This document shows, piece after piece, positions 6,909 to 63,108 of a DNA stretch of 64,000 bases. This DNA is from Terriglobia bacterium (lineage in GTDB: Bacteria > Acidobacteriota > Terriglobia > 20CM-2-55-15): positions 3,220,640 through 3,284,639 of the forward strand of contig OZ253554.1 in the NCBI GenBank assembly GCA_965262675.1, given 5' to 3'. Under the pieces are notes generated by a model. It did no database searches. It was not told the origin of the DNA and saw only the letters and a list, made by a program, of their open reading frames with translations. The translations under genes were made by a program, and so were the position numbers. Position 1 is the stretch's first letter. Each line of letters starts with the position of its first letter.

Positions 6909-7307
6909 ATGGAAGACGCAGAACACATATTCACTCGCGGCGAGGCCAGGAGCGTCCTGCCCCGCCTGAAGCCGCTACTCCGGGAAATTCGTGAAGAGTG
7001 GCTCCGGATCAAGGAACTGAACCCCGAGATCCAGAAGACCCGTGAAAAGGCCATGCTGGACGGGTACAGCCCCTACGGTGTCGAATATGTGGAGTCCGTG
7101 TCCCACCTGATGCACGTAATGAGTCAGGTTCGGGAAATGGGCGTACTGATCAAGGATCTCGACAAGGGGCTGGTCGATTTCCCTTATTTGAAACACGAGC
7201 GTGTGGTCTATCTGTGCTGGCACCTGGGTGAGGAATCCATCGACTACTGGCACGAAACGGAGTCTGGTTTTTCGTCGAGAGAACCGCTCGACGAAAACGA
7301 CGTATAA
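6909..7307 (+). CDS. Conserved hypothetical protein (DUF2203-like)
   Basis: 132-aa ORF with a VYLCWHLGEE segment reminiscent of the DUF2203 family. Family assignment is from memory only. Confidence 0.55.
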   Translation: MEDAEHIFTRGEARSVLPRLKPLLREIREEWLRIKELNPEIQKTREKAMLDGYSPYGVEYVESVSHLMHVMSQVREMGVLIKDLDKGLVDFPYLKHERVVYLCWHLGEESIDYWHETESGFSSREPLDENDV

Positions 7308-43507: not shown

Positions 43508-43858
43508 GATTTACCTTCGGACTCCGCCACCAGCGGCCCGTGGCAAAACCCCGCGGGGTCCCGGCACCAAAAACTGGGCCGAGTCTACAGAACGATCCAG
43601 TGGAGCGCAACCCGCTCTCCGGATGTGTCGGGAACCGCGCAGCTGGCCGTCGGCCACTCCATCGGTTCCCGACGCCTCACGCCGCAACAGGCGAATCCGG
43701 CTTACCGCTTCGGCGCGTTGTTCGAAGCGCTCGGTTTGGGATATTGGTCGAAATGCCGGTCGCCGAACGGATTCCACATTACAGTGGCCCCGGCACGGCT
43801 CCGAACCACTCCAGATTGTTAACTCCAGAGCTTAACCATTGCCGTTACTATCAAAGTC

Positions 43859-44146
43859 ATGACCGGTATCGAACCGATTCATCCTGGAGAACATTTGGCC
43901 GATTTTCTCGAAGAACTCGGAATCAGCCAATACCGTTTGGCGAAAGCGATCGGCACGCCGCCGCGGCGCATCAACGAGATCGTCCACGGACGCTGATCGA
44001 TCATGGCGGACACGGCGCTACGGTTGGGGCGGGCTTTCGAATTGACACCGGAGTTCTGGCTGAACTTGCAAAACTTGTACGACCTCGATCTTGCCCGCGC
44101 CTCGATCGATACCGGGACCATCGAAGCGCTGCGTACGGCCCAATAG
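43859..44146 (+). pseudogene. higA: higA-family (XRE HTH) antitoxin gene interrupted by an in-frame TGA at 43994-43996; no higB partner
   Basis: Translation [45 protein letters not shown]-stop-SIMADTALRLGRAFELTPEFWLNLQNLYDLDLARASIDTGTIEALRTAQ is colinear with HigA. The stop sits where a conserved Arg/Lys is expected, so a CGA>TGA change is likely. Confidence 0.6.
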
Positions 44147-44382
44147 CCGGGCGGGTCCATTCCGCGGCGGACGATCCGGAAGTTGAAGTCCACGAACGAA
44201 AAAGCACGGGGCCAATGAATAGGAAGTTCGACTTTGTGAGGCGGTTCCGGTGATCGAGGAGTCTGTCGGGAATTGGCTCCCTCGAACTAAGAATCAACAA
44301 CTTACGAGCCATCCTTGGTCTGTAAGTTGTTGATTCTTGGTTGCAGACTTCTTATTCCCGACAGGCTCCGAGATGGCTGCCT

Positions 44383-45672
44383 TTACACAAACGCTCCGAA
44401 TACTCCACCATCGCTTGTAGCAACGCCGAGCAACTTCGCGCGAACCCGGTGAGCTGTGTCTAACGAGATCGGTCCGCCGTGCACTGCTCGGTTCCGGTAG
44501 GGTTTCACTACTTCTATTGCCTTCCGCAACCTATGAAGGTCAATCCCACGCGTGTCGCAAAACTCCTGCAGTTCCGTACGCGGCGATTCCAACGCCAGCG
44601 CAATCTCACCCAGGTTGAGTCGATCCTTCTGACGCCCCCCGATTAGAATCCTCGGGCGGCGACTACCATTTTTGAGCAGTTCGGAATCAGGAAAATTCCG
44701 GAGTCCGCGCCTTCTGAGAAATTCGCAGAGATCATCCAGAATCCCCGTCTTGAGTTGAGTTTCGAAGGCAAAACCGAATCCGGCTATACCGAGGCCAGGA
44801 TCAGGGCAATCGGGATCCTGCAGGGTTCGCTCAGCGGCAAGGGCCTTTGTCTGGGCATCCTCAGACAGGACGTCCCACACCTGACAGGTGAGCTCTGTCT
44901 TGAGCGAATCTTCAACTGCGCGCATTTCAGGCGGATTGCATTTCATCTGATCCACGACAAGCTCGATGCAACGCTCAAGACGCTCGTATTGGTCAATAAG
45001 GGGAATCTGTGAAGCGCTTATCGAATCTAACCTGTCCATCACCTGCTGAAAACGTACGGCATAGGGGTCGTCACGGGGCGCCGTGGCCGAGGCCTCCACC
45101 GACGCCGCGCACCATGCCAAATACAGGATATGCCGCCAATCGAGTTCGCTGATATCGGAGGGATTCCCAGATGATCCTCGGACGAAGTTATCCATCAGGA
45201 TCTGCTGCCAATCGCTACGTTCGGTTTTGACTTCAATGGAAACAACGCCTTCGAGATCGTTCAGGTCTCGATCTGTTGCTGTTGGCAACGTCAATGGCAA
45301 CTTTGGCATCCAATGACCATTCCGTGTCGTGACATCACCGTGTACTCCAATGACGTTCCTGGCGGTCAGGAGACAGAGAAACTCGTCGTCCTTCAATCTC
45401 TGCACGAACATCGCGACCGGACTGCGATCTTCTGACAAACGCCACACGCACCAGGGATGGCGAAGAGACTCCTCGTTGTCGTCCTCGCTTCGAAACCGCG
45501 GGAGGTGAGTCTCTTCGTAACGGCGTATGGCACCGCCGGCGGGCATGTACATCTGGGCGGCTCGAATCCCGAGGAGCCGGAACCACTCATCGACTTGCCT
45601 TCCTTCTGAATTCAATGGATCTTTCCACTTATAGTCGGTGATGCCATTTGCTTGCGCCTCGCTTGGCAGCAC
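44383..45672 (-). CDS. Hypothetical protein with C-terminal HEPN-like Rx4HG motif (candidate RNase effector)
   Basis: 429 aa. Near the C-terminus, LRKAIEVVKPYRNRAVHGG contains R-N-x3-H, which is the HEPN catalytic signature. Sits immediately downstream of the Cys-rich gene and near zorD. Confidence 0.5.
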   Translation of the reverse strand: MLPSEAQANGITDYKWKDPLNSEGRQVDEWFRLLGIRAAQMYMPAGGAIRRYEETHLPRFRSEDDNEESLRHPWCVWRLSEDRSPVAMFVQRLKDDEFLCLLTARNVIGVHGDVTTRNGHWMPKLPLTLPTATDRDLNDLEGVVSIEVKTERSDWQQILMDNFVRGSSGNPSDISELDWRHILYLAWCAASVEASATAPRDDPYAVRFQQVMDRLDSISASQIPLIDQYERLERCIELVVDQMKCNPPEMRAVEDSLKTELTCQVWDVLSEDAQTKALAAERTLQDPDCPDPGLGIAGFGFAFETQLKTGILDDLCEFLRRRGLRNFPDSELLKNGSRRPRILIGGRQKDRLNLGEIALALESPRTELQEFCDTRGIDLHRLRKAIEVVKPYRNRAVHGGPISLDTAHRVRAKLLGVATSDGGVFGAFV

Positions 45673-45705
45673 AGGATACCCGGCCGCTTTCCATTCCAGG
45701 GAAAG

Positions 45706-46428
45706 CTATTCCGTCGCTCGGTCTTGGTCACAGTTCATGCAGGAAACGCATCGGGCCAGAAGTTCCGAGATGGTCTTCAGATTTGTATGATCGAATTTGT
45801 CTAAAGCCTGCTTCAGGGCCAGACGTTCCGTATCGCAGTGGGCACAATCCGCCAAGTGTTGGCGATAATATCCCAGTGGCCAACCGTCGAAATTGTCAAG
45901 GCAACCGCGAGTCAGAAGCGTTTCTTGTTGCCCCAGCTTTTCGCAAACGTCCGTGCCTTCTATTAACTCCTCTCCCCAGGCGATGTCATCATCGGGAAAC
46001 AGGATCGTCCCCCACGTTCCGACGAAATCGAGATCGAAATCCGGCAATTCATCCGGCGTCTGCATCGCGAGGGGAACGGCTGTATCCGAGTAGGGCATGT
46101 CGGAAAGACGCCGCGCAGCTTCCGCCCGTAGTTCTTCCGAAAACAGTGTTTTCCACTCTTCGTTCAAGACTATGGCCTCGATCGTCAGGTCGGGCCGGCC
46201 GCGAGCGCAGATATCGACGGAATCGTCGGACGGTGGCTCCGAAAGCAGTTGCTTGGCGGCGCGCGCCCCGCCCAACTCGCGCACGCGCTCGATGTACTGG
46301 TTGGGAGCGTACTTACAGTCCGCAATAACATGCCGAATGAAATTCATGATTCGATCATTGAAGTTGTTCTCGACAAGTTCGCGTTCGGTCCATCTCAGCA
46401 GCATCTCAGTCTCCATCGCGCGTGACAT
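45706..46428 (-). CDS. Hypothetical Cys-rich protein (CAHCDTERL / CVSCMNC pairs), likely co-transcribed with the HEPN-like gene
   Basis: 240 aa with several CxxC pairs near the C-terminus. 33-nt gap to the downstream gene, 204-nt gap after zorD. Confidence 0.45.
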   Translation of the reverse strand: MSRAMETEMLLRWTERELVENNFNDRIMNFIRHVIADCKYAPNQYIERVRELGGARAAKQLLSEPPSDDSVDICARGRPDLTIEAIVLNEEWKTLFSEELRAEAARRLSDMPYSDTAVPLAMQTPDELPDFDLDFVGTWGTILFPDDDIAWGEELIEGTDVCEKLGQQETLLTRGCLDNFDGWPLGYYRQHLADCAHCDTERLALKQALDKFDHTNLKTISELLARCVSCMNCDQDRATE

Positions 46429-46632
46429 TCATCACGGCTCCATAGCAGTCGTCTTCCGATTTCCGTGCTTCGAGCACGAGCATCTCGTGAGTCTATTCCT
46501 TCGTCGAATTACTTCGCTCTCTACCGCATCGTATCTGTGCGTCCGCGGACCGACGCGAGAGCTTCATCAATGACCGCCGCGCCATGCGTGGTGTCCGACC
46601 GCACGTGCTTGCGCAGAACAACGCCAGAGAGC

Positions 46633-49581
46633 TCAATCCTCAAAGGCCGACCGTTCCATCACATCGACCCGAACCTCCGGCGCATCAGGCACTTTGCCGC
46701 CACGCGCCTCGGTCATCGTGCTGCGGTAGAGATCTTGCACATCACGCTCGGTGGCGGTGGTCGGCGCAAGCACGCGGCGGTTCATCGCCCGTTTCCGTTC
46801 CATCAGGCTGTCGAGCTTCAAATCGAAGCTGTATTCGCCGAAACGCGGGTGCCGTGCCAACGGCAGGTAGACGTGCACGGTCCGGCGTTGTCCGATACGG
46901 AAGACGCGATCGGTGCACTGATCCTCCACGGCCGGATTCCACCACCGCGAAAGATGAATGACGTGGTTCGCCGCCGTCAGCGTCAGACCGACGCCGCCGG
47001 CACGAGGCGACAGGAGCATAACGTCAAAACCCATACGGTCCTGGAACATGTCGACGCGCGCCTTGCGCCTTCCACCGGAGACCGCGCCGTTGATGACGAG
47101 CACATCCTCGCGAAGCCGAAAGCGGTGTCTGAGCGCGCCGATCAGGAAGTCCTGCATTTTGAGCGACTCGACGAAGATCAACACTTTCTCGCCTTGGTCG
47201 GCGACCCCCTCCAGAATCGCGAATGTCTCGGATAACCGCGCCGATTCCCGTATGTACTGATCGACGCTGCGATCGCCCGGCACCGCGGGATGCAGGGAGG
47301 TATTTCGAAGTTTCTGGAGCGTCTGAAGCACACCGCCATCCTGTCGGCCGCGCAGCACGATCTCCGCGTACGCCTCGGCCTGGAACGGCGGCATCTCAAC
47401 CACGCGCCGGTGCACCCGCTTCTCCGGCAGCGTCGCGAGATGGTCTTCCTTGAGCCGGCGCAACATCAGCGCAGGACCCGTCGACTCCGCCGGCTTCGTC
47501 AGCGTGCGATGCAAATCCTCGAGTATCGCGTGGCCTTCCGCGTCTCGTCTTTCGTATCTCCCGCTGAAATCCTTCAGGGTTCCGAACATCCCGGGTTCGG
47601 TCCGGTCCAGCAACGACCAGATATCCGCCGGGCGATTCTCCACGGGCGTGCCGGTCATCAGCAGGGCAAAGTCGACGTTCATGGCAAGCGCCGCGTCCGT
47701 CAGGCGAGCGTTCGGGTTTTTGATTTTCTGGGCTTCGTCAAACACACCGGCGCGCCAGTGGATACGTCCGAAACTGTGCTGATAGTCGCGAAGAGTTTCG
47801 TAGGTGGTCAGCACCCAGTGGGCATCCTTCAGTAGAGCAATGTCCAGGAGCGGTTGTCCGAAAGCGAGATCGTCGCCACGATCCGCCGCGTGTTTCTTTC
47901 GGAGACGCCGCAATTCGCCGCCATGCGCTTCAACGGCCCGGCCGAGTCCTTCTCCGGCGAGATGTTTCGCATGTTCGTCCTTCCAGTTCTTGAGCAATCC
48001 GGTCGGAGCGACAACGAGCGTGGGCTGTTGCGGCAACCCCTCGTTTACGGAATGCGTCTTCAGGCAGGAAAGAAAAGCCAATGCTTCGAGCGTCTTGCCG
48101 AGTCCCATGTCGTCGGCAAGCAGGGCACCCCAACTGCCGGCTTCCCATCTGGTTTCGAGCCAGGCAAGACCCTCCTGTTGGTGGGGAAGAAGTTCGGTCC
48201 GCAAGCCGGGCTTGGACGTCGAAATGCCGGGCCGGCGCCGCTTCCGCTCACGGGTGAACCGAACGGTTTCCAGGTTGTCGATAACGATCAAGATCTGATC
48301 GTCATCGTCGCGTCCGACGGGTGCTTTGTCCGGTTCGGTGCTCGTCCTCGGACGCTGGGCTGACTGATGCCTGCGGATCAGTGCCTCGACGGCGCTGATT
48401 GTGGCCGAATTCGCCGGGATATCGGCGCCGCTATCGGTCCGCACGGTCGGTTCGCCACGCTCGACCGCGCTCTGGATTCGTTCGAGCAGGCCGGACAGGT
48501 CGTCGGGAGACAGCGGCACCATCTGCGAACCGATGCGAAGTCCCGATTCGTCTGGAGGCAACCACGGTTCCGCGGCGTGCCGGATCCACGGAACCGTCTT
48601 GTCGACCCAGATGCCGACGCCGCTGACACGGTCGCTCAATCCGTCATCGCTGAAGACGCTGTCGAGTTCAAACTCGTGCGTGTCGAATGCGCCGCGCAGG
48701 TAGCCCGAAGCGTTCCGCAGGAAATCTCGACGCTCATCGGGCGTGCCCGACTGTGCGCGTTGCACGATGGCGAGAGCCTGTTGGACCTCCGGCGTAAGCA
48801 CGACAAAGGCCCCGCCCCCGGCCGGGTATCGATGCCTGACGCCGGACAGGGCGCGGAAGCGCCGTGCGAAATCCTGCTGGCGGGCCTCTGGCAGCGTGCG
48901 GTCGAACGCTTGCTCGTGATCACCCACATCGGTCGCGCGAGTCGCCCGCCTGCCGACGACCGGGTCGAAGTCCGGTTCGCCGTCCTCGTTCACAAACGGA
49001 TCCAGCTCGAAGCTCGAAGCTACGACGATCTTCAGCGAACGCAGATTGTCGTCACCGACAACGGCGTCGGCCGGCAACATCTCGGCGATCCGTCCCCATC
49101 GAAGCATTCGCGATTCCAGATCCGCCTCGTCCGCCCGGTTGAACAGGTCGATGGCATCGGCGATGGAGTACAGAGGATCGAGCAGCACGAAGTCGCCGCC
49201 GCCCGCATGCAGCCATGCCCCCTCACGTCGCGTGCCGAGGACGCGCCGTCCGTTGCGGAGAAAGCCGTAACGGATCTGGAAGTCGGCGTCGTGTATGGCG
49301 TTGTTCGCGACGACCTCGATCGCGAACGGCGATGCATCGGGAAGCCCGATGTACCGCAGTTCGCCGGGGGTCAATCCGGCGACGCTCGGCCAGGAAACCG
49401 ACAATGAACAACCATCGTCCTTCTCGACGGCGCCGCCGTCATCCCGAAGTCGAATCAGCGCGCCCACGCCGGCCGATCCGTCGGCGATCGATGTCCACTC
49501 GCGGACGGAAACCGGTGGATCGCCCTGCATCCGGACGATCAAGCCGTCCGGCGTCGGCTTGAACCTGAGGCTGTTAGTCAT
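46633..49581 (-). CDS. zorD: SNF2-family helicase with large N-terminal domain (ZorD-like)
   Basis: SNF2_N motifs (LLADDMGLGKT, DEAQKIKN) and helicase-C motifs (RAGGVGLTLTAANHVIHLSRWWNPAVEDQCTDRVFRIGQ). Preceded by ~470 aa of unknown function. Last gene of the zorABCD-like operon. Confidence 0.75.
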   Translation of the reverse strand: MTNSLRFKPTPDGLIVRMQGDPPVSVREWTSIADGSAGVGALIRLRDDGGAVEKDDGCSLSVSWPSVAGLTPGELRYIGLPDASPFAIEVVANNAIHDADFQIRYGFLRNGRRVLGTRREGAWLHAGGGDFVLLDPLYSIADAIDLFNRADEADLESRMLRWGRIAEMLPADAVVGDDNLRSLKIVVASSFELDPFVNEDGEPDFDPVVGRRATRATDVGDHEQAFDRTLPEARQQDFARRFRALSGVRHRYPAGGGAFVVLTPEVQQALAIVQRAQSGTPDERRDFLRNASGYLRGAFDTHEFELDSVFSDDGLSDRVSGVGIWVDKTVPWIRHAAEPWLPPDESGLRIGSQMVPLSPDDLSGLLERIQSAVERGEPTVRTDSGADIPANSATISAVEALIRRHQSAQRPRTSTEPDKAPVGRDDDDQILIVIDNLETVRFTRERKRRRPGISTSKPGLRTELLPHQQEGLAWLETRWEAGSWGALLADDMGLGKTLEALAFLSCLKTHSVNEGLPQQPTLVVAPTGLLKNWKDEHAKHLAGEGLGRAVEAHGGELRRLRKKHAADRGDDLAFGQPLLDIALLKDAHWVLTTYETLRDYQHSFGRIHWRAGVFDEAQKIKNPNARLTDAALAMNVDFALLMTGTPVENRPADIWSLLDRTEPGMFGTLKDFSGRYERRDAEGHAILEDLHRTLTKPAESTGPALMLRRLKEDHLATLPEKRVHRRVVEMPPFQAEAYAEIVLRGRQDGGVLQTLQKLRNTSLHPAVPGDRSVDQYIRESARLSETFAILEGVADQGEKVLIFVESLKMQDFLIGALRHRFRLREDVLVINGAVSGGRRKARVDMFQDRMGFDVMLLSPRAGGVGLTLTAANHVIHLSRWWNPAVEDQCTDRVFRIGQRRTVHVYLPLARHPRFGEYSFDLKLDSLMERKRAMNRRVLAPTTATERDVQDLYRSTMTEARGGKVPDAPEVRVDVMERSAFED

Positions 49582-49651
49582 GGAATCACCACACGGAACG
49601 GGATTAATTCACCCGCCGGACCCGGCGGCGGCACCGTCGAGCGGGACGCGG

Positions 49652-51157
49652 TCATCGAAACGTTGAGCGCCATGAGCGGCTGCGTTCCGATCGGCGCAGC
49701 GTGGGTGGGAAGTACCGATCGCGTTCGATTCTGACACCGGTGTTGTCTCGCAACCATTTCGCGATCTTGTCCTGCCACCGGCCGTATTCGCTGCCCATGT
49801 GCGCTTGCAAATGTGCTCCGGCGATCCGATGGTATTGGCGCGTATGTCTCAGTTCGTTGGCGAAGTAGGTATTCTTGTACAACCCGGGTGTTCCAGAAGT
49901 CCCGTCGAGCCACATGTGGCACGAGCCGTTGTGGCTCCATTCGGCTATGGTCACTCCAGGCATGCGAAAGAGCAGGACGGACTGGTCACTCTGGCCGCCG
50001 CGCAACGCGCTTGTCGTTCCGAGCCCCCCGTCGTTCTTGTTCATCTTGCGGAGCACATCCGCCGCGCGACGACCCAGCACGAACCAGATGTCCTCGATCA
50101 GTTCCCTGGCGAGAAACGCCCGCCAGAAGGCTTCCCGGTAACGCCAATGTCTGTCGAGTGCGGTCTCCTTGACGAGAAGGAAGAACTGCTCCAGCACACG
50201 TTCGACGAGCCATCGGATCACGACGCGCGTGACGTCGTCTGGCACGCCGGACCATTTGTGTTTCCCGGACCGCAGGCGGGGGTCGCCGAAGTGACGCAGA
50301 AAGAACGATTGCAGCCGTTCCTTGACTTCGGGCTTCGGAGACTGGTCAACGAAAGGACCGAGCAACTCAACCGCGGTCCTTACCCGCACGGCCGGTTCGT
50401 CGAAGCGCAATTTGCCGTCGCACTCCAAAAGGGACAGCAACCGCTCGAGGCGGGCATCGCCGAAGCGATTGTTCGTCAGCCGGGCTCGTACGTCCGGGAG
50501 ATACGAGCGAACGCCCGATTCGAGAAACCCGCAACGCGCGAGTCCGGCATCGATCCCGGCTTGGCGCAGGATTTCTTCGGGAGCCGCGTCCGCGGCCGTC
50601 ATCAACTGGTTCACGAACGACCGGCCACCGTTATTCTTCAGAAACCCATAATCCTTGCAGCGCTGACGCCACCGTTTCAGTGACGGCGGAGGTGCTGACG
50701 AAGGACCTTGGATGGTGTTTTCGAGCAACCGGCGTAGATCGTCGAACGTCGGCAGGTCGACCGGATAGACGCGCAAGAACTCGTGCAGCAGCGCCAGTGT
50801 GGACCGCGTGCGGCCGCCCTCCGACAGCCAGCGCCCGTATTCCTGTACGAAGCGGGGGCGCGCGCCCAACCACCGGGCACGGCCCGCGTCCGGCGGTGAG
50901 TAGAACAAAACCCATGGCAATCGCCGGAGGTCGCCGGTTGAGAGGCGGTCGAGAGAATGGTAACGGCGCCACGATTCATTGGCTCGCCGATGCAACGTCT
51001 CCAAGTCGTAGGGCTCGGGCGCTTTGGGCTGAACGTCGCCCAACCGCTTCGCTATACCGGCCGCCGCAGCCCGCGTCCGGCGGGGTTCGAAAGCGCGGTC
51101 AATTTTCGGGAAGCCGACCCAGCGATCGAGCGAATCCCTCAGCGAAGGCGTGTTCAC
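49652..51157 (-). CDS. zorC: ZorC-like protein (EH-signature-type domain)
   Basis: 501 aa, positioned between the MotB-like and SNF2 genes. C-terminal segment IAEWSHNGSCHMWLDG carries conserved E/H as in the ZorC EH-signature domain. Assignment is by context plus motif. Confidence 0.55.
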   Translation of the reverse strand: MNTPSLRDSLDRWVGFPKIDRAFEPRRTRAAAAGIAKRLGDVQPKAPEPYDLETLHRRANESWRRYHSLDRLSTGDLRRLPWVLFYSPPDAGRARWLGARPRFVQEYGRWLSEGGRTRSTLALLHEFLRVYPVDLPTFDDLRRLLENTIQGPSSAPPPSLKRWRQRCKDYGFLKNNGGRSFVNQLMTAADAAPEEILRQAGIDAGLARCGFLESGVRSYLPDVRARLTNNRFGDARLERLLSLLECDGKLRFDEPAVRVRTAVELLGPFVDQSPKPEVKERLQSFFLRHFGDPRLRSGKHKWSGVPDDVTRVVIRWLVERVLEQFFLLVKETALDRHWRYREAFWRAFLARELIEDIWFVLGRRAADVLRKMNKNDGGLGTTSALRGGQSDQSVLLFRMPGVTIAEWSHNGSCHMWLDGTSGTPGLYKNTYFANELRHTRQYHRIAGAHLQAHMGSEYGRWQDKIAKWLRDNTGVRIERDRYFPPTLRRSERSRSWRSTFR

Positions 51158-52065
51158 CGCGCCCCTTCGCCGACCCGTTCACGAACATCGGTCTGGACAT
51201 CGGGTTCGCCCGTCGTCAGCACGCCCTCGGGAGGTTCAAGAAGGAACCGCAGATCAATGCGACGGTGGATGCGTCCGGCGTCGTCGGCCGCGGCACCGAG
51301 TGGCGCCGACTGGAATTCGCCGCCGGGTACCGGCCGCGTGGCGCCGTAACCGCTGGTGCTCAGAATGGGATAGTTCTCTGTGTTCAGCAGGCGCGCCACG
51401 CCCGGTTCGCAAGCGGCGATCATGCCATGCACAGTCGCCGCCCGCATCGAGGACAGTTCGAGATTGTCTCTGAAGCGGTTGCCGGCCGCGACGGGCACAT
51501 CGTCGGTGTGGCCCTCAATCAGCAGGGTCTCGAGGAGCCACGGAAACCGCTGTTCCCCGCATTCATACGCGGATGGATCTGCGGGAAGTTGACAATAGGA
51601 CAGCGCGACGGCGTCTTCGCTCGCCAGTGCGTTCCCGTCCGTCGCCGGAAGCCCGATCAGTTCGCCCGAGACGTAGCATGGTACGACCTCGGCGATGGCC
51701 TCGGCGAGACGTCCGACGTTGACGTGATGTTCAGGGACCGGAGTATCGCTGCCCGACGGGAAGTTGATGGCGTTGTCGGAAAGGCGCAGGACGCCCTGTT
51801 CGTACAGCACTTCGACCCGGATACCGGAATCCTGGAGCAGGCCGGCGATGTCCCCGAGGATCCGGTCGCGCGTTTCATCCGCGGCGGTGAGTTCCTCGGT
51901 GACGTTGGCCTGTTCCTCGGTGATGTTGGCGAGTTGATACGCAAAGACGGCCAGCATGATGATGAAGACGAAGATGAGCGACGAGACGAGGTCGCTCACA
52001 CTGGCAAGATAACTCTGCCCGCCCTGGCCGGCGTCCGGCGAGGGTCTGGATCCGCCGACCATCAC
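51154..52065 (-). CDS. zorB: MotB/OmpA-like protein (ZorB-like): N-terminal TM anchor plus C-terminal OmpA-type peptidoglycan-binding domain
   Basis: TM helix LVSSLIFVFIIMLAVFAY. OmpA-like motifs LIEGHTDDVP, NLELSSMRAATVHGMI and LSTSGYGATRPV. Confidence 0.7.
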   Translation of the reverse strand: MMVGGSRPSPDAGQGGQSYLASVSDLVSSLIFVFIIMLAVFAYQLANITEEQANVTEELTAADETRDRILGDIAGLLQDSGIRVEVLYEQGVLRLSDNAINFPSGSDTPVPEHHVNVGRLAEAIAEVVPCYVSGELIGLPATDGNALASEDAVALSYCQLPADPSAYECGEQRFPWLLETLLIEGHTDDVPVAAGNRFRDNLELSSMRAATVHGMIAACEPGVARLLNTENYPILSTSGYGATRPVPGGEFQSAPLGAAADDAGRIHRRIDLRFLLEPPEGVLTTGEPDVQTDVRERVGEGAR

Positions 52066-53768
52066 GCACGCCTCCGGAGATGCTCGCTCAGATCCTCGAT
52101 CGACGAATGGAGTTCGTTCGTTGCGCCGGCCAGATCCTGTGTGATCTTCGACGTAGTCCCGTCCAGTTCGTTGACAAATTGCGTCACCTGTTTGCAGTAT
52201 CCCGACAGACCTTCGTCGAGCTTCTGGAACACTTGGGCCAGCGAGCCATCGATGCCCTCGAAGCGTTCCCGATACCGGTCCCAGTTGCCGGCCACCGTTT
52301 TCTGGTGCTGTTCGAGCGTATTGACCGCGGCGTCGATACGGCCGACGAGTTCGCTCGTCCGCCCCAGCGCTGCGGCCGCCTTGTCGCTGGAGGCACGGAT
52401 CTCGCTTGCCGCGCGGCCCATAGGTTCAGCGACATCCGCGATCTGACGGTGGGCGACTTCAATCGTCTCGCGCAACGTGTTGATCCGATCAACGAAACTT
52501 GTCATGCTGGCCAGCACCTGCTCGCTCTGTCGTGTGGACCGGTCGAGACTGTGCGCGGCGGCCAGCAGGCCGTCGAGCGATCCGGAGATCTGCGAGGCGG
52601 CCTCGACGCCGGCCGCGGCGGCGGCCGTCCCGGCGCCTGTCAGCCGTTCCGCCAGTTGATGCGAAGCATCCGCCATGATGCGGGTGACATCGCCGAGCGA
52701 TTGTTGCAACGTCTCGGTCATCGCGGTCGCGCCTGCGTCCATCGATGTCCTGACCGTAGTCATGACCGAACTGAGCGCCGCTTGGACGTCCCGTTGCGAC
52801 TGGGCCAGCCCGTCGGATGAGTCCTTCAGGGTGCGGTTCAACTCGGTGACAATAGCGGCCATCTCGTCGAACTGCGATCCGGCGCGTTCCTGCATGGCCG
52901 AGGTAAACCGCTCGAGCGTCTCCTCGATCATCCTTCCGGAGTCGGTCGACCGATCGACGCGAAGTCCCTCGACGGCTTCGACGAGCCGTTCGAGTTGCGG
53001 CGACAATCGGCCGGCGATCTTCTCCTCGAGTGCCTGTTCGAGAGAGAAAATCAATTCACTGTTGAAGCGTTCGAGCTGCATTGTCGCGCGTGTCGCCTGT
53101 TCGAGTTGCTTCAGGGCGACGCCTTCCGGCGTGACGCGCTGCAGGCGGGTCTCGATCGATCCGACCCACTCGTCCAATGCGATGTGGAGTCGCCGGGAAG
53201 CGAAGCGTTCCCCAAGTACGAACAATATGGAACAGACAATTCCGACGATCGATGTCCAGAAAGCCAGCGACGCACCGCCCAGAAGCTGCTGCAGGGAGGC
53301 TGTTATCTCCGCCGGATTGCTGGAGGACAGACCCGAGCTTGCCGATCCGACCCCGCCTGCCAAACCCAAGAACGTACCCAGGATGCCGGCGCCTGTCAGC
53401 AGGTTCGGCACGGCTTGGTAAAAACCGAAAGGGATTTTGGGGAAAATGACGGTAGTGTCGTTCAGATATTGCGACACCACTCCGGTGTTCCGGATCGGGT
53501 CGCCGGAATCCGGTTCAGGAAGAACCAGCGTTTCGACGAATTCCTTCCACGGCAGACCGAAGGCCTTTTCGACGCGCATGTTGTATTCGTCGAATGCGCC
53601 GACAAAGCCTTTTTCTCCGTCAACGCGCTCAAGTTGTTCGCGCACCCCGCGAAGCCTTCGATATAGCGGGCGCGCGCCCAAAGCCAGCATTATCGCGCAG
53701 ACAACAGCTGACAGAGCAATGATCCCGCAGTACCACCATACGAAGCTTTCGGTGAGGAAGAAGCTCAT
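52062..53768 (-). CDS. zorA: MotA/TolQ/ExbB-like proton-channel protein with long coiled-coil tail (ZorA-like)
   Basis: N-terminal TM segments with MotA-like TGAGILGTFLGLAGG and LAFWTSIVGIVCSILFVLG. Followed by ~370 aa of Ala/Gln/Glu/Leu-rich heptad-like sequence. Overlaps the zorB start. Confidence 0.7.
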   Translation of the reverse strand: MSFFLTESFVWWYCGIIALSAVVCAIMLALGARPLYRRLRGVREQLERVDGEKGFVGAFDEYNMRVEKAFGLPWKEFVETLVLPEPDSGDPIRNTGVVSQYLNDTTVIFPKIPFGFYQAVPNLLTGAGILGTFLGLAGGVGSASSGLSSSNPAEITASLQQLLGGASLAFWTSIVGIVCSILFVLGERFASRRLHIALDEWVGSIETRLQRVTPEGVALKQLEQATRATMQLERFNSELIFSLEQALEEKIAGRLSPQLERLVEAVEGLRVDRSTDSGRMIEETLERFTSAMQERAGSQFDEMAAIVTELNRTLKDSSDGLAQSQRDVQAALSSVMTTVRTSMDAGATAMTETLQQSLGDVTRIMADASHQLAERLTGAGTAAAAAGVEAASQISGSLDGLLAAAHSLDRSTRQSEQVLASMTSFVDRINTLRETIEVAHRQIADVAEPMGRAASEIRASSDKAAAALGRTSELVGRIDAAVNTLEQHQKTVAGNWDRYRERFEGIDGSLAQVFQKLDEGLSGYCKQVTQFVNELDGTTSKITQDLAGATNELHSSIEDLSEHLRRRA

Positions 53769-54219
53769 TGCGGCGTAAGATAACCTGGAAAGATCCGCCC
53801 GACGGGAGGGCGATAGGACCGTCGGCGAGTGCGTGTTGCGGCCGTGTTACCGACATACCAAGACGTTGTCATTTTCAGATGTCAAACAAGTTCGATACGA
53901 AGCGTGATAATTCGCGCTGGCGGGTCAACATTTCTTCCGGGAAGGCACAAGCATACATCAAGGAAGAGGGTGCGGCAACGAGGGCAAATTCGTATCGGGA
54001 GTTCCGCTTCGAGTTGGGAGGGGTCGCGGTCTGCGGCTCAGTGAATGCGCCGTCGGTAGCGCCTAGCATGGTGGGAGGCGGCGGGAGAGGAACGCGTACC
54101 GTGGATTGCCGGGACGGGCGGGGACATTCCCTTGCGCGTCCGAGAACGGGCGACGCTTCATGGACCGTGCGCCCCTGCATCCGCTCCCTACGCCTCACTC
54201 CGCGCCAGGCCAAGCCGGC

Positions 54220-62485: not shown

Positions 62486-62560
62486 CGGGGCGTAGCGCAG
62501 CCTGGTTAGCGCGCCTGCTTTGGGAGCAGGAGGTCCCCAGTTCGAATCTGGGCGCCCCGA
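62486..62560 (+). tRNA. tRNA-Pro (anticodon TGG)
   Basis: Acceptor CGGGGCG/CGCCCCG, D-arm GCGC-AGCCTGGTT-AGCGC, anticodon stem CCTGC with loop TTTGGGA (TGG), T-arm CCCAG-TTCGAAT-CTGGG, discriminator A. Confidence 0.85.
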
Positions 62561-63108
62561 CTTTTAGAATCAAAGAGATACATGGATTTTGGCATATCTG
62601 TTTGTACCGTAAACTCCGTCCGCACTGAAAACATTGCAGTTACAGGATTCCGGCGACAAGCTTCGGTGGCCATGATACGAGTGATTTGTTGCCTGATGGC
62701 CGCGCTGTGTTAAGTGTCTTTGCGCCGAACCCTGAAATTGTACTTTCTCTACTACTGGCATTCGCGGACTCACTTGGCGCTGGAGAAGGATTCCCCACAG
62801 ACGAGAGCAGTTCAGCTCCTCGGAACTGGGCCTGTTGTGGAACTGCCACAAGTCGGCGGGTTACACCATCGTTACGAACGCCGCGCCGCCTGAACCGTCA
62901 GACAGATCGTGACCGCACGCAATCGACGTACACAAAGTTTTGTCAATACCCTGCTGAATCTCCGAATCGGATCTCCGTATGAACGGTCATGCCGAACCTG
63001 ACGGTCATCTCGAACGCGGAAAGTAGCGTTTCGCCGTACACGATCTGACCGATTTCGAGTGCGATGGAGTTTCTGGTAGGGACAACCCGTTATGATGGAC
63101 GATTGACT

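Follow-up and report, generated by a model that had tools for sequence, protein, structure and literature searches.

A Very Probable Type I Zorya Operon for Phage Defense in an Uncultured Bacterium of the Acidobacteriota

Four adjacent genes on the minus strand of a 64,000-nucleotide stretch of contig OZ253554.1 from a Terriglobia bacterium (hereafter the window, in whose coordinates positions are given unless another locus is named) very probably constitute zorABCD, an intact anti-phage operon of the type I Zorya kind that is carried chromosomally by an uncultured member of the Acidobacteriota. Each of the four encoded proteins was matched by the corresponding PADLOC model (ZorA1, ZorB1, ZorC1, and ZorD1), as had been anticipated in an earlier note on this DNA that was made from its letters alone. 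The genes and the one spacer between them are as follows:

52062-53768, minus strand: zorA, 568 amino acids (aa), ATG start, inner-membrane motor subunit
51154-52065, minus strand: zorB, 303 aa, GTG start, stator anchor
49652-51157, minus strand: zorC, 501 aa, GTG start, EH-signature protein, predicted DNA-binding partner
49582-49651, minus strand: zorC-zorD intergenic spacer, ~67-70 nt, read directly from the sequence
46633-49581, minus strand: zorD, 982 aa, ATG start, predicted ATP-dependent nuclease effector

The coordinates and lengths of the four minus-strand open reading frames (ORFs) that had been proposed earlier were reproduced exactly in a longest-ORF listing. Together with the PADLOC identities, this listing shows that the genes are co-directional, present in a single copy each, and arranged in the zorA-zorB-zorC-zorD order of type I Zorya, as had also been proposed. 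Since long antisense ORFs coexist with these genes in DNA of ~62% G+C (e.g., 50680-52446 on the plus strand, 588 aa), ORF length alone is no proof of a gene; profile E-values of 1e-44 to 1e-292 place the four genes far beyond chance. The zorA/zorB and zorB/zorC junctions, read directly from the sequence, each consist of a 4-nt overlap (GTGA), and start and stop codons are thus coupled at these two junctions. The start-to-stop overlap that had been ascribed to all four genes therefore holds for the first three, whereas zorC and zorD lie ~67-70 nt apart, with a Shine-Dalgarno-like GGTGAT element in the spacer immediately 5' of the zorD ATG. Orthologs of ZorB begin at the following ATG (52062 here), which makes a TGATG overlap with zorA and suggests that ZorB probably starts at this codon and comprises 302 aa.

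The four-gene order was kept in nine related loci, three from genomes labeled Terriglobia, Acidobacteriota, and Latescibacterota (L001-L003) and six from unlabeled metagenome contigs (L005-L010). Protein-level comparison indicates that eight of these nine have flanks unrelated to those of the window. The remaining locus, L001, is syntenic and belongs to a Terriglobia metagenome-assembled genome that is collinear with the window at ~94% nucleotide identity over 61136-46661 and 44180-37954. The recurrence of the same gene order amid unrelated flanks, except in L001, suggests that the four-gene module is both a conserved and a mobile unit.

Among the PADLOC models, the best match for ZorA was ZorA1 (2.3e-44, 150 bits, residues 9-393, with the tail beyond residue 393 falling outside the alignment), that for ZorB was ZorB1 (1.2e-59, 200 bits, in two stretches, the best covering 15-133), that for ZorC was ZorC1 (5.4e-114, 380 bits, residues 5-477), and that for ZorD was ZorD1 (8.2e-292, 969 bits, residues 11-964). 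The ZorA1 and ZorC1 matches are those whose absence the earlier note had named as speaking against Zorya. Models of type II and III Zorya and of other SNF2 defense proteins scored far below the type I models: ZorA2 and ZorA3 reached at most 63 bits on ZorA, ZorB3 and ZorB2 reached 34 and 30 bits on ZorB, and DpdE and DrmD reached 251 bits (4e-75) and 93 bits (3e-27) on ZorD. All 11 PADLOC matches of ZorC were to ZorC1 models, with no competing model. The partners of the motor genes are ZorC and ZorD, not the ZorE (HNH) or ZorF/ZorG of types II and III, and the sizes of all four proteins fall inside the length range of the PADLOC type I models.

The 568-aa protein had been described as a MotA-like transmembrane (TM) core followed by a long helical tail, and structural modeling bears this out. 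In an AlphaFold2 (AF2) monomer model, the motor region (residues 1-210) was confidently predicted (predicted local distance difference test (pLDDT) score of 74-89) and comprises a beta-hairpin along with three long TM helices. ZorA also has a membrane-proximal cytoplasmic domain, and an almost unbroken helix extends from 214 to 567, yielding a tail of ~355 residues. The low confidence of the modeled tail is expected for a single chain of a pentameric bundle. A tail-less MotA-like gene, the other outcome that had been named as speaking against Zorya, is thus not what the model depicts. Foldseek comparison of the model with the PDB returned six ZorA chains as the sole matches at or below 1e-3 (2e-10 to 5e-7), with TM-scores on the target of 0.62-0.72; the E. 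coli chain 8qyd_A matched at 2e-10 and the Shewanella chain 8vvn_C had the TM-score of 0.72. Structures of TolQ, ExbB, and MotA matched only at E-values of at least 0.02. Sequence searches of the PDB identified the same two proteins, both when ZorA was used as a single sequence (8vvn_C, 1e-12; 8qyd_A and its deletion variants, 3e-8) and when a profile of 40 clade members was used (8e-24 and 2e-23, respectively). In ZorA, Pfam detected only coiled-coil noise and no MotA_ExbB match; a database protein that is 100% identical to ZorA (P0121) bears the Pfam family PF28082 ('ZorA-like_t1').

Profile alignment to 8qyd_A pairs E76 and E79 of ZorA with E86 and E89 of the E. coli Ca2+ site, P121 with P136 at the kink of the cytoplasmic H3 helix, I129 with I144 adjacent to the ZorB Asp, and T132 and S173 with T147 and S184 of the ion-selectivity filter. 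Across the 40 homologs, each of these aligned functional residues was either invariant or conserved in at least 90%. The GxLGT motif that had been noted in this protein is present as GILGT at 128-132, but it is the motif of the ion-filter helix TM2 and not a plug. Plugs are a feature of MotB.

ZorB has a single TM helix (18-50) that holds Asp25 and a C-terminal, periplasmic, divergent OmpA/MotB-like domain that aligns to residues 135-232 of Shewanella ZorB. The TM anchor and OmpA peptidoglycan-binding domain earlier attributed to the 303-aa protein are therefore recognizable in the helix and in a GHTD...NxxLxxxR motif, with the Pfam OmpA match reaching only E 0.002, under the gathering score. 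A single-sequence search of the PDB matched Shewanella ZorB (8vvn_B, 4e-15), and, in the alignment to this chain, ZorB has an insertion of ~40 aa that follows the first helix and precedes the peptidoglycan-binding core. D25 corresponds to the essential Asp of Shewanella (D24 in 'SFSDLMS') and E. coli (D26). GHTD is present at 185-188, and N201, L204, and R208 correspond to the peptidoglycan-binding residues N152, L155, and R159 of E. coli. Four Cys are present at 130, 158, 169, and 219; their E. coli counterparts form two disulfides associated with domain stability. D25, the four Cys, and the peptidoglycan-binding motif were invariant in three ZorB orthologs of ~70% identity.

The E/H-containing C-terminal motif that had been claimed for the 501-aa protein was confirmed by a Pfam EH_Signature match (5e-45) in ZorC. 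In 35 homologs, E405, H452, and W460 were invariant and D334, R340, and W344 were conserved. Alignment of the clade profile to E. coli ZorC (8r68_A, 5e-6) pairs the latter three residues with D332, R335, and W339 of the EH electrostatic network. Because this direct alignment stops short of the remaining residues, spacing and invariance are the grounds on which we infer that E405, H452, and W460 correspond to the E. coli EH signature E400, H443, and W458. The AF2 model of ZorC was confident (pLDDT 83; predicted TM-score 0.80), and its single significant fold match in the PDB was E. coli ZorC (8r68; 5.6e-7; TM-score on the target of 0.64; 435 aligned columns).

ZorC is of a short form that ends ~20 residues past the EH core in an Arg-rich tail. 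Two classes of ZorC occur in the clade, a short class of ~480-540 aa and a long class of ~575-640 aa, the members of which (577-638 aa) bear an extra C-terminal region of ~100 aa. A frameshift in zorC, suggested by a 120-aa ORF at 49578-49940 that ends 4 nt into zorD, was considered and rejected, since many homologs of the short class have ends that match the C-terminus of ZorC (...RSWRSTFR).

In ZorD, Pfam identified SNF2-rel_dom (1e-50) and Helicase_C (2e-13) after an N-terminal region of ~460 aa that is covered by the ZorD profiles, in agreement with the SNF2 helicase with a large N-terminal domain that had been read from the 982-aa ORF. ZorD matched E. coli ZorD (8qy7_A, 8e-76) over residues 312-941 against 424-1065. 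The ATP-binding Walker A motif is GLGKT at 493-497, E536 corresponds to E651 of E. coli, which contacts the ATP ribose, and the DEAQ box (D615-E616-A-Q, 615-618) corresponds to positions 730-733. A C-terminal Mrr_cat nuclease domain is absent from ZorD, as it is from E. coli ZorD. About half of the ZorD homologs in the clade bear Mrr_cat; those with it are ~1100-1140 aa in length and those without it are ~970-990 aa and end after the helicase core. Among the related loci, the Pfam screen detected Mrr_cat in ZorD of the four listed here and not in L006 or L009:

L003, 11800-15216: zorD with Mrr_cat
L005, 8118-11432: zorD with Mrr_cat
L007, 8006-11314: zorD with Mrr_cat
L010, 7478-10786: zorD with Mrr_cat

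ZorD of L002 (977 aa), judged by alignment, matches end to end with ZorD of the window, leaving no space for Mrr. We considered and rejected a coupling of long ZorC to Mrr-bearing ZorD, as L006 encodes a long ZorC without Mrr and L010 encodes a short ZorC with Mrr. The two ZorC classes and the two ZorD forms combine freely within the clade.

The roles of the corresponding E. coli residues were established by mutagenesis (PMC11946911), and all residues essential by that measure are kept in the aligned proteins, with ZorC E405 and H452 assigned by spacing and invariance. The mechanism outlined here is drawn from the homologous systems of E. coli and Shewanella/Serratia, while the direct evidence at this locus consists of gene order, folds, and residue conservation. 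By analogy, five copies of ZorA would surround two copies of ZorB in the inner membrane to form an ion-driven 5:2 rotary motor. Perturbation of the envelope by a phage would lead the periplasmic domain of ZorB to bind peptidoglycan, and ions passing ZorB Asp25 and the ZorA Thr132/Thr172/Ser173 filter would then rotate ZorA and its coiled-coil tail, which would be ~50 nm long at ~1.4-1.5 Å per residue. The tail would recruit and activate ZorC, as an EH-signature DNA binder, and ZorD, as an SNF2 ATPase/nuclease that would be autoinhibited until triggered, and the two would degrade incoming phage DNA close to its entry site. From these homologous systems, we infer that the motor assembles, which ion drives it (H+ or Na+), that the genes are expressed, and that they protect the Acidobacteriota host from phages.

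The earlier description of the system as proton-motive-force-driven goes further than the residues allow. Because ZorA carries a Thr-Thr-Ser filter, the three-hydroxyl arrangement seen in Na+-binding stators, H+ coupling is not established. It is possible, if tentatively so, that the same type I Zorya motor is coupled to Na+ instead of protons or is able to use either ion. T132, T172, and S173 were invariant in the 40 clade members and align to the 'GVIGTF' and 'AFLTSV' motifs of Shewanella ZorA, and the Shewanella type I ZorAB structure contains bound Na+ (PMC11890865). PomA T158/T185/T186 are conserved in every Na+-driven stator, and H+-driven stators have Ala at the positions of T158 and T185 (PMC10374538). 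Moreover, the position of T172 is occupied by G183 in E. coli ZorA, which has been assigned as H+-driven (PMC11946911). On the other side, the hydroxyl triad is necessary but not sufficient for Na+ use, the soil Acidobacteriota host shows no sign of a sodium-motive lifestyle, and the assignment derives from sequence alignment.

Several results weigh against an intact type I Zorya operon. All NCBIfam cut-offs were missed: ZorA scored 162 bits against the 190-bit cut-off of the subfamily model NF033914 (antiphage_ZorA_1) and 68 against 750 bits for the equivalog NF041794 (ZorA1), ZorC scored 25 against 490 bits (equivalog NF041789), and ZorD scored 321 against 1500 bits (equivalog NF041790). Single-sequence searches of the PDB did not find E. 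coli ZorB, with the Shewanella chain being the only one matched, and returned no match for ZorC, thereby missing E. coli ZorC. The ZorA tail is ~150 residues shorter than that of E. coli, in which all tested tail truncations abolished defense (PMC11946911). Likewise, the C-terminal globular domain of E. coli ZorC is absent here, as judged from the sequence, the ends of homologs, and the AF2 model, and deleting it abolishes DNA binding and defense in E. coli (PMC11946911). Finally, a consensus scan revealed no sigma-70-type site 5' of zorA, and no promoter was identified.

The missed NCBIfam cut-offs imply that the proteins are distant from the E. coli-type equivalogs, and such scores show distance rather than an absence of type I features. 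The length of ZorA is not unprecedented, since the PADLOC ZorA1 models span 487-727 positions; clade members range from 513 to 631 aa (mostly 563-600 aa), with one outlier of 732 aa, and the tip of the ZorA tail remains alignable with that of E. coli, as a second domain of the profile alignment. Similarly, the existence of PADLOC ZorC1 models with lengths of 432-483 (the best-matching one has 462 positions) shows that the C-terminal domain is not universal in the ZorC family.

The presumed control region of the operon occupies the following interval:

53769-54219, minus strand: upstream intergenic region separating zorA from the cytochrome c gene, ~450 nt, presumed promoter and 5' untranslated region

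The AT-rich, promoter-like character earlier given to 53769-53900 amounts to a mild bias, as its G+C of 0.545, compared with 0.605 in the window as a whole, ranks at the 12th percentile of 132-nt windows, and it has no sigma-70 match. The intergenic region as a whole contains no Rfam family, shares no conserved sequence with the more distant Zorya loci L002 and L003, and includes a 112-aa ORF without coding-like codon bias; a conserved upstream regulatory element or small gene was rejected on these three grounds. In L001, at ~7260-7290, ~110 nt 5' of zorA, a 9-mer (TTTTACATC) beside a TTGACA hexamer is present in two more copies than in the window.

The lack of a recognizable promoter is one of the observations that would fit an operon that is silent, decaying, or recruited to a non-defense role despite its intact ORFs. 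Two others are the absence from ZorC of a domain that E. coli requires and the zorC frame of the 94%-identical L001 (10001-11317), which diverges past residue 418 through a frameshift and ends at 438 aa. Nevertheless, we consider this explanation very unlikely. Measured against the clade, each of the four ORFs is of full length, the essential residues are all kept, short forms of ZorC are common in the clade and represented among the PADLOC models, and the L001 frameshift is possibly a long-read assembly error. Moreover, the third-position G+C of the operon (0.73-0.75) is at least as high as that of the adjoining cytochrome c host gene (0.71), which suggests that the operon has long been resident in the host lineage and is consistent with residence under selection.

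That the locus instead comprises an ordinary MotAB/TolQR/ExbBD stator beside an unrelated SNF2 helicase of DISARM (DrmD) or Dpd (DpdE), as the secondary DpdE and DrmD matches of ZorD, the missing Pfam MotA_ExbB match, and the weak OmpA match might be taken to indicate, is exceedingly improbable and has effectively been refuted by the PADLOC scores (969 bits for ZorD1 against 251 for DpdE) and Foldseek matches (2e-10 for ZorA against at least 0.02 for the stator folds), and is further contradicted by the ~355-residue helical tail, a ZorC that is specific to type I Zorya, the conservation of the four-gene order in nine loci, and the lack of other DISARM or Dpd genes among the scanned neighbors.

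Type I Zorya has been known since 2018, and its structure and mechanism were reported in 2024-2025. The operon in the window is an ordinary new example, the variations of which lie within known ranges and which PADLOC would call automatically. We think it unlikely that it represents a 'minimal' soil clade of type I Zorya, characterized by a ~30% shorter tail, an Arg-rich ZorC tail in place of the C-terminal DNA-binding domain, and a Na+-type filter. Were this so, such a clade would provide a natural deletion series showing which parts of Zorya are truly required, and a Na+-coupled defense motor in a non-marine bacterium would be possible. As an ordinary example, the locus documents an intact type I Zorya in an uncultured member of the Acidobacteriota (Terriglobia) for which the NCBIfam cut-offs are missed and the database entries identical to ZorA (P0121) and ZorC (P0001) bear no source-given name. 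NCBIfam-based pipelines would thus probably leave this Zorya unnamed, whereas PADLOC models detect it readily. The ZorA of ~570 aa with its shorter tail, the ZorC without a C-terminal domain, and the optional Mrr of ZorD are natural combinations that bear on which of the E. coli mutagenesis results generalize, and the ion filter cautions against assuming proton coupling in type I Zorya.

The host is an uncultured, diderm soil bacterium of the Acidobacteriota, in line with what is known of type I Zorya, which occurs in Gram-negative phyla. The database proteins identical to ZorA and ZorC are encoded on a 5.54-Mb contig. The amidase-GerM-RNase PH-Ham1 gene neighborhood pointed to a Firmicute, an unusual host for Zorya, but a Gram-positive host was rejected since the genomes closest to the window belong to diderm Terriglobia/Acidobacteriota. 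The operon is flanked by housekeeping genes, including those for fumarate reductase/succinate dehydrogenase, malonyl-CoA decarboxylase, a dihaem-type cytochrome c, agmatine deiminase, a C-N hydrolase, an AmiC-type amidase, GerM, RNase PH, and Ham1, and no PADLOC match was obtained among the scanned neighbor genes. The sole Rfam/ARAGORN matches in the window were tRNA-Arg(TCT) at 1905-1979 and tRNA-Pro(TGG) at 62486-62561; as neither adjoins the Zorya locus, the operon does not form a tRNA-linked island. In two unrelated genomes, a gene of the Uma2 family (putative endonuclease) lies directly 5' of zorA and overlaps its start; this gene is absent from the window:

L003, 6797-7423: Uma2-family gene, judged by eye
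L007, 2854-3429: Uma2-family gene, identified with Pfam

Directly 3' of zorD is a 2.5-kb segment (44180-46660) with a G+C of 0.55 that is absent from the 94%-identical L001. It contains two ORFs that are in different frames and 33 nt apart:

45706-46428, minus strand: ORF of 240 aa
44383-45672, minus strand: ORF of 429 aa

No family was found for either ORF in Pfam, PADLOC, NCBIfam, or PDB-profile searches. Together, they align collinearly with one 659-aa protein (P0242), suggesting that a single gene has been split or frameshifted. With 83 representatives in a set of 1.84 billion proteins, the P0242-type family is a rare one; it has a near-invariant RNxxxH motif (R392-N393-xxx-H397, HEPN-like) and E303. 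The RNxxxH motif is typical of HEPN RNases. The neighbors of the gene for P0242 in its own locus (L004) are small unknown genes and HSDR_N-like and DUF4158 (Tn3-type) genes. Collectively, these sequence features make the split HEPN-like gene a candidate uncharacterized defense gene in a variable hotspot. A 237-aa ORF (43540-44253, plus strand) that separates the inserted segment from the gene for a DUF2214-like membrane protein has no family match and no coding-like codon bias (third-position G+C of 0.53). It is partly conserved in L001, where it is broken into two pieces, and is possibly a decaying gene.

When compared to known systems, the locus shares with MotAB/PomAB and TolQR/ExbBD an expected pentamer-around-dimer membrane motor, the Asp of the B subunit, and the GxxGT pore helix, and it shares with MotB an OmpA-like peptidoglycan anchor. 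It differs in having a cytoplasmic coiled-coil tail and ZorC and ZorD partners, none of which occur in those motors, and, by homology to ZorB, no MotB-type plug or linker is evident. Structural similarity to these motors is also far weaker (Foldseek E-values of at least 0.02). By sequence, the PDB entry that best matched both ZorA and ZorB was ZorAB of Shewanella sp. ANA-3 (8VVN; Nat Commun 2025, PMC11890865), which has the same 'TS' pair in the pore-lining helix and a ZorB D24 that is equivalent to D25 here. Shewanella ZorA is longer (696 aa, with the tail at 236-696, against 568 aa), and Na+ binding, which was shown in that system, is only predicted here.

The operon resembles the E. coli type I Zorya (PMC11946911) in its zorABCD order; in the three TM helices, Ca2+-site glutamates, filter Thr/Ser, and homologous tail tip of ZorA; in the essential Asp, NxxLxxxR peptidoglycan motif, and four Cys of ZorB; in the EH network of ZorC (D334, R340, W344, E405, H452, and W460); and in the Walker A motif, E536, DEAQ box, and lack of an Mrr domain of ZorD. 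Identity in the aligned cores is merely ~16-18% for ZorA and ZorC. Relative to E. coli, ZorA is 568 rather than 729 aa with a tail of ~355 rather than 507 residues and has T172 in place of G183 in the filter, ZorB is 303 rather than 246 aa with an insertion of ~40 aa, ZorC is 501 rather than 560 aa and is without the C-terminal globular domain, and the N-terminal domain of ZorD is ~110 aa shorter. The closest likeness is to the PADLOC-DB type I subfamilies PDLC00605, PDLC00610, PDLC00622, and PDLC00634/00629, which matched at near full length (150, 200, 380, and 969 bits) with no difference of substance besides the ZorA tail past 393. These near full-length matches mean that the sequence subfamily to which the operon belongs is already part of the type I Zorya reference set.

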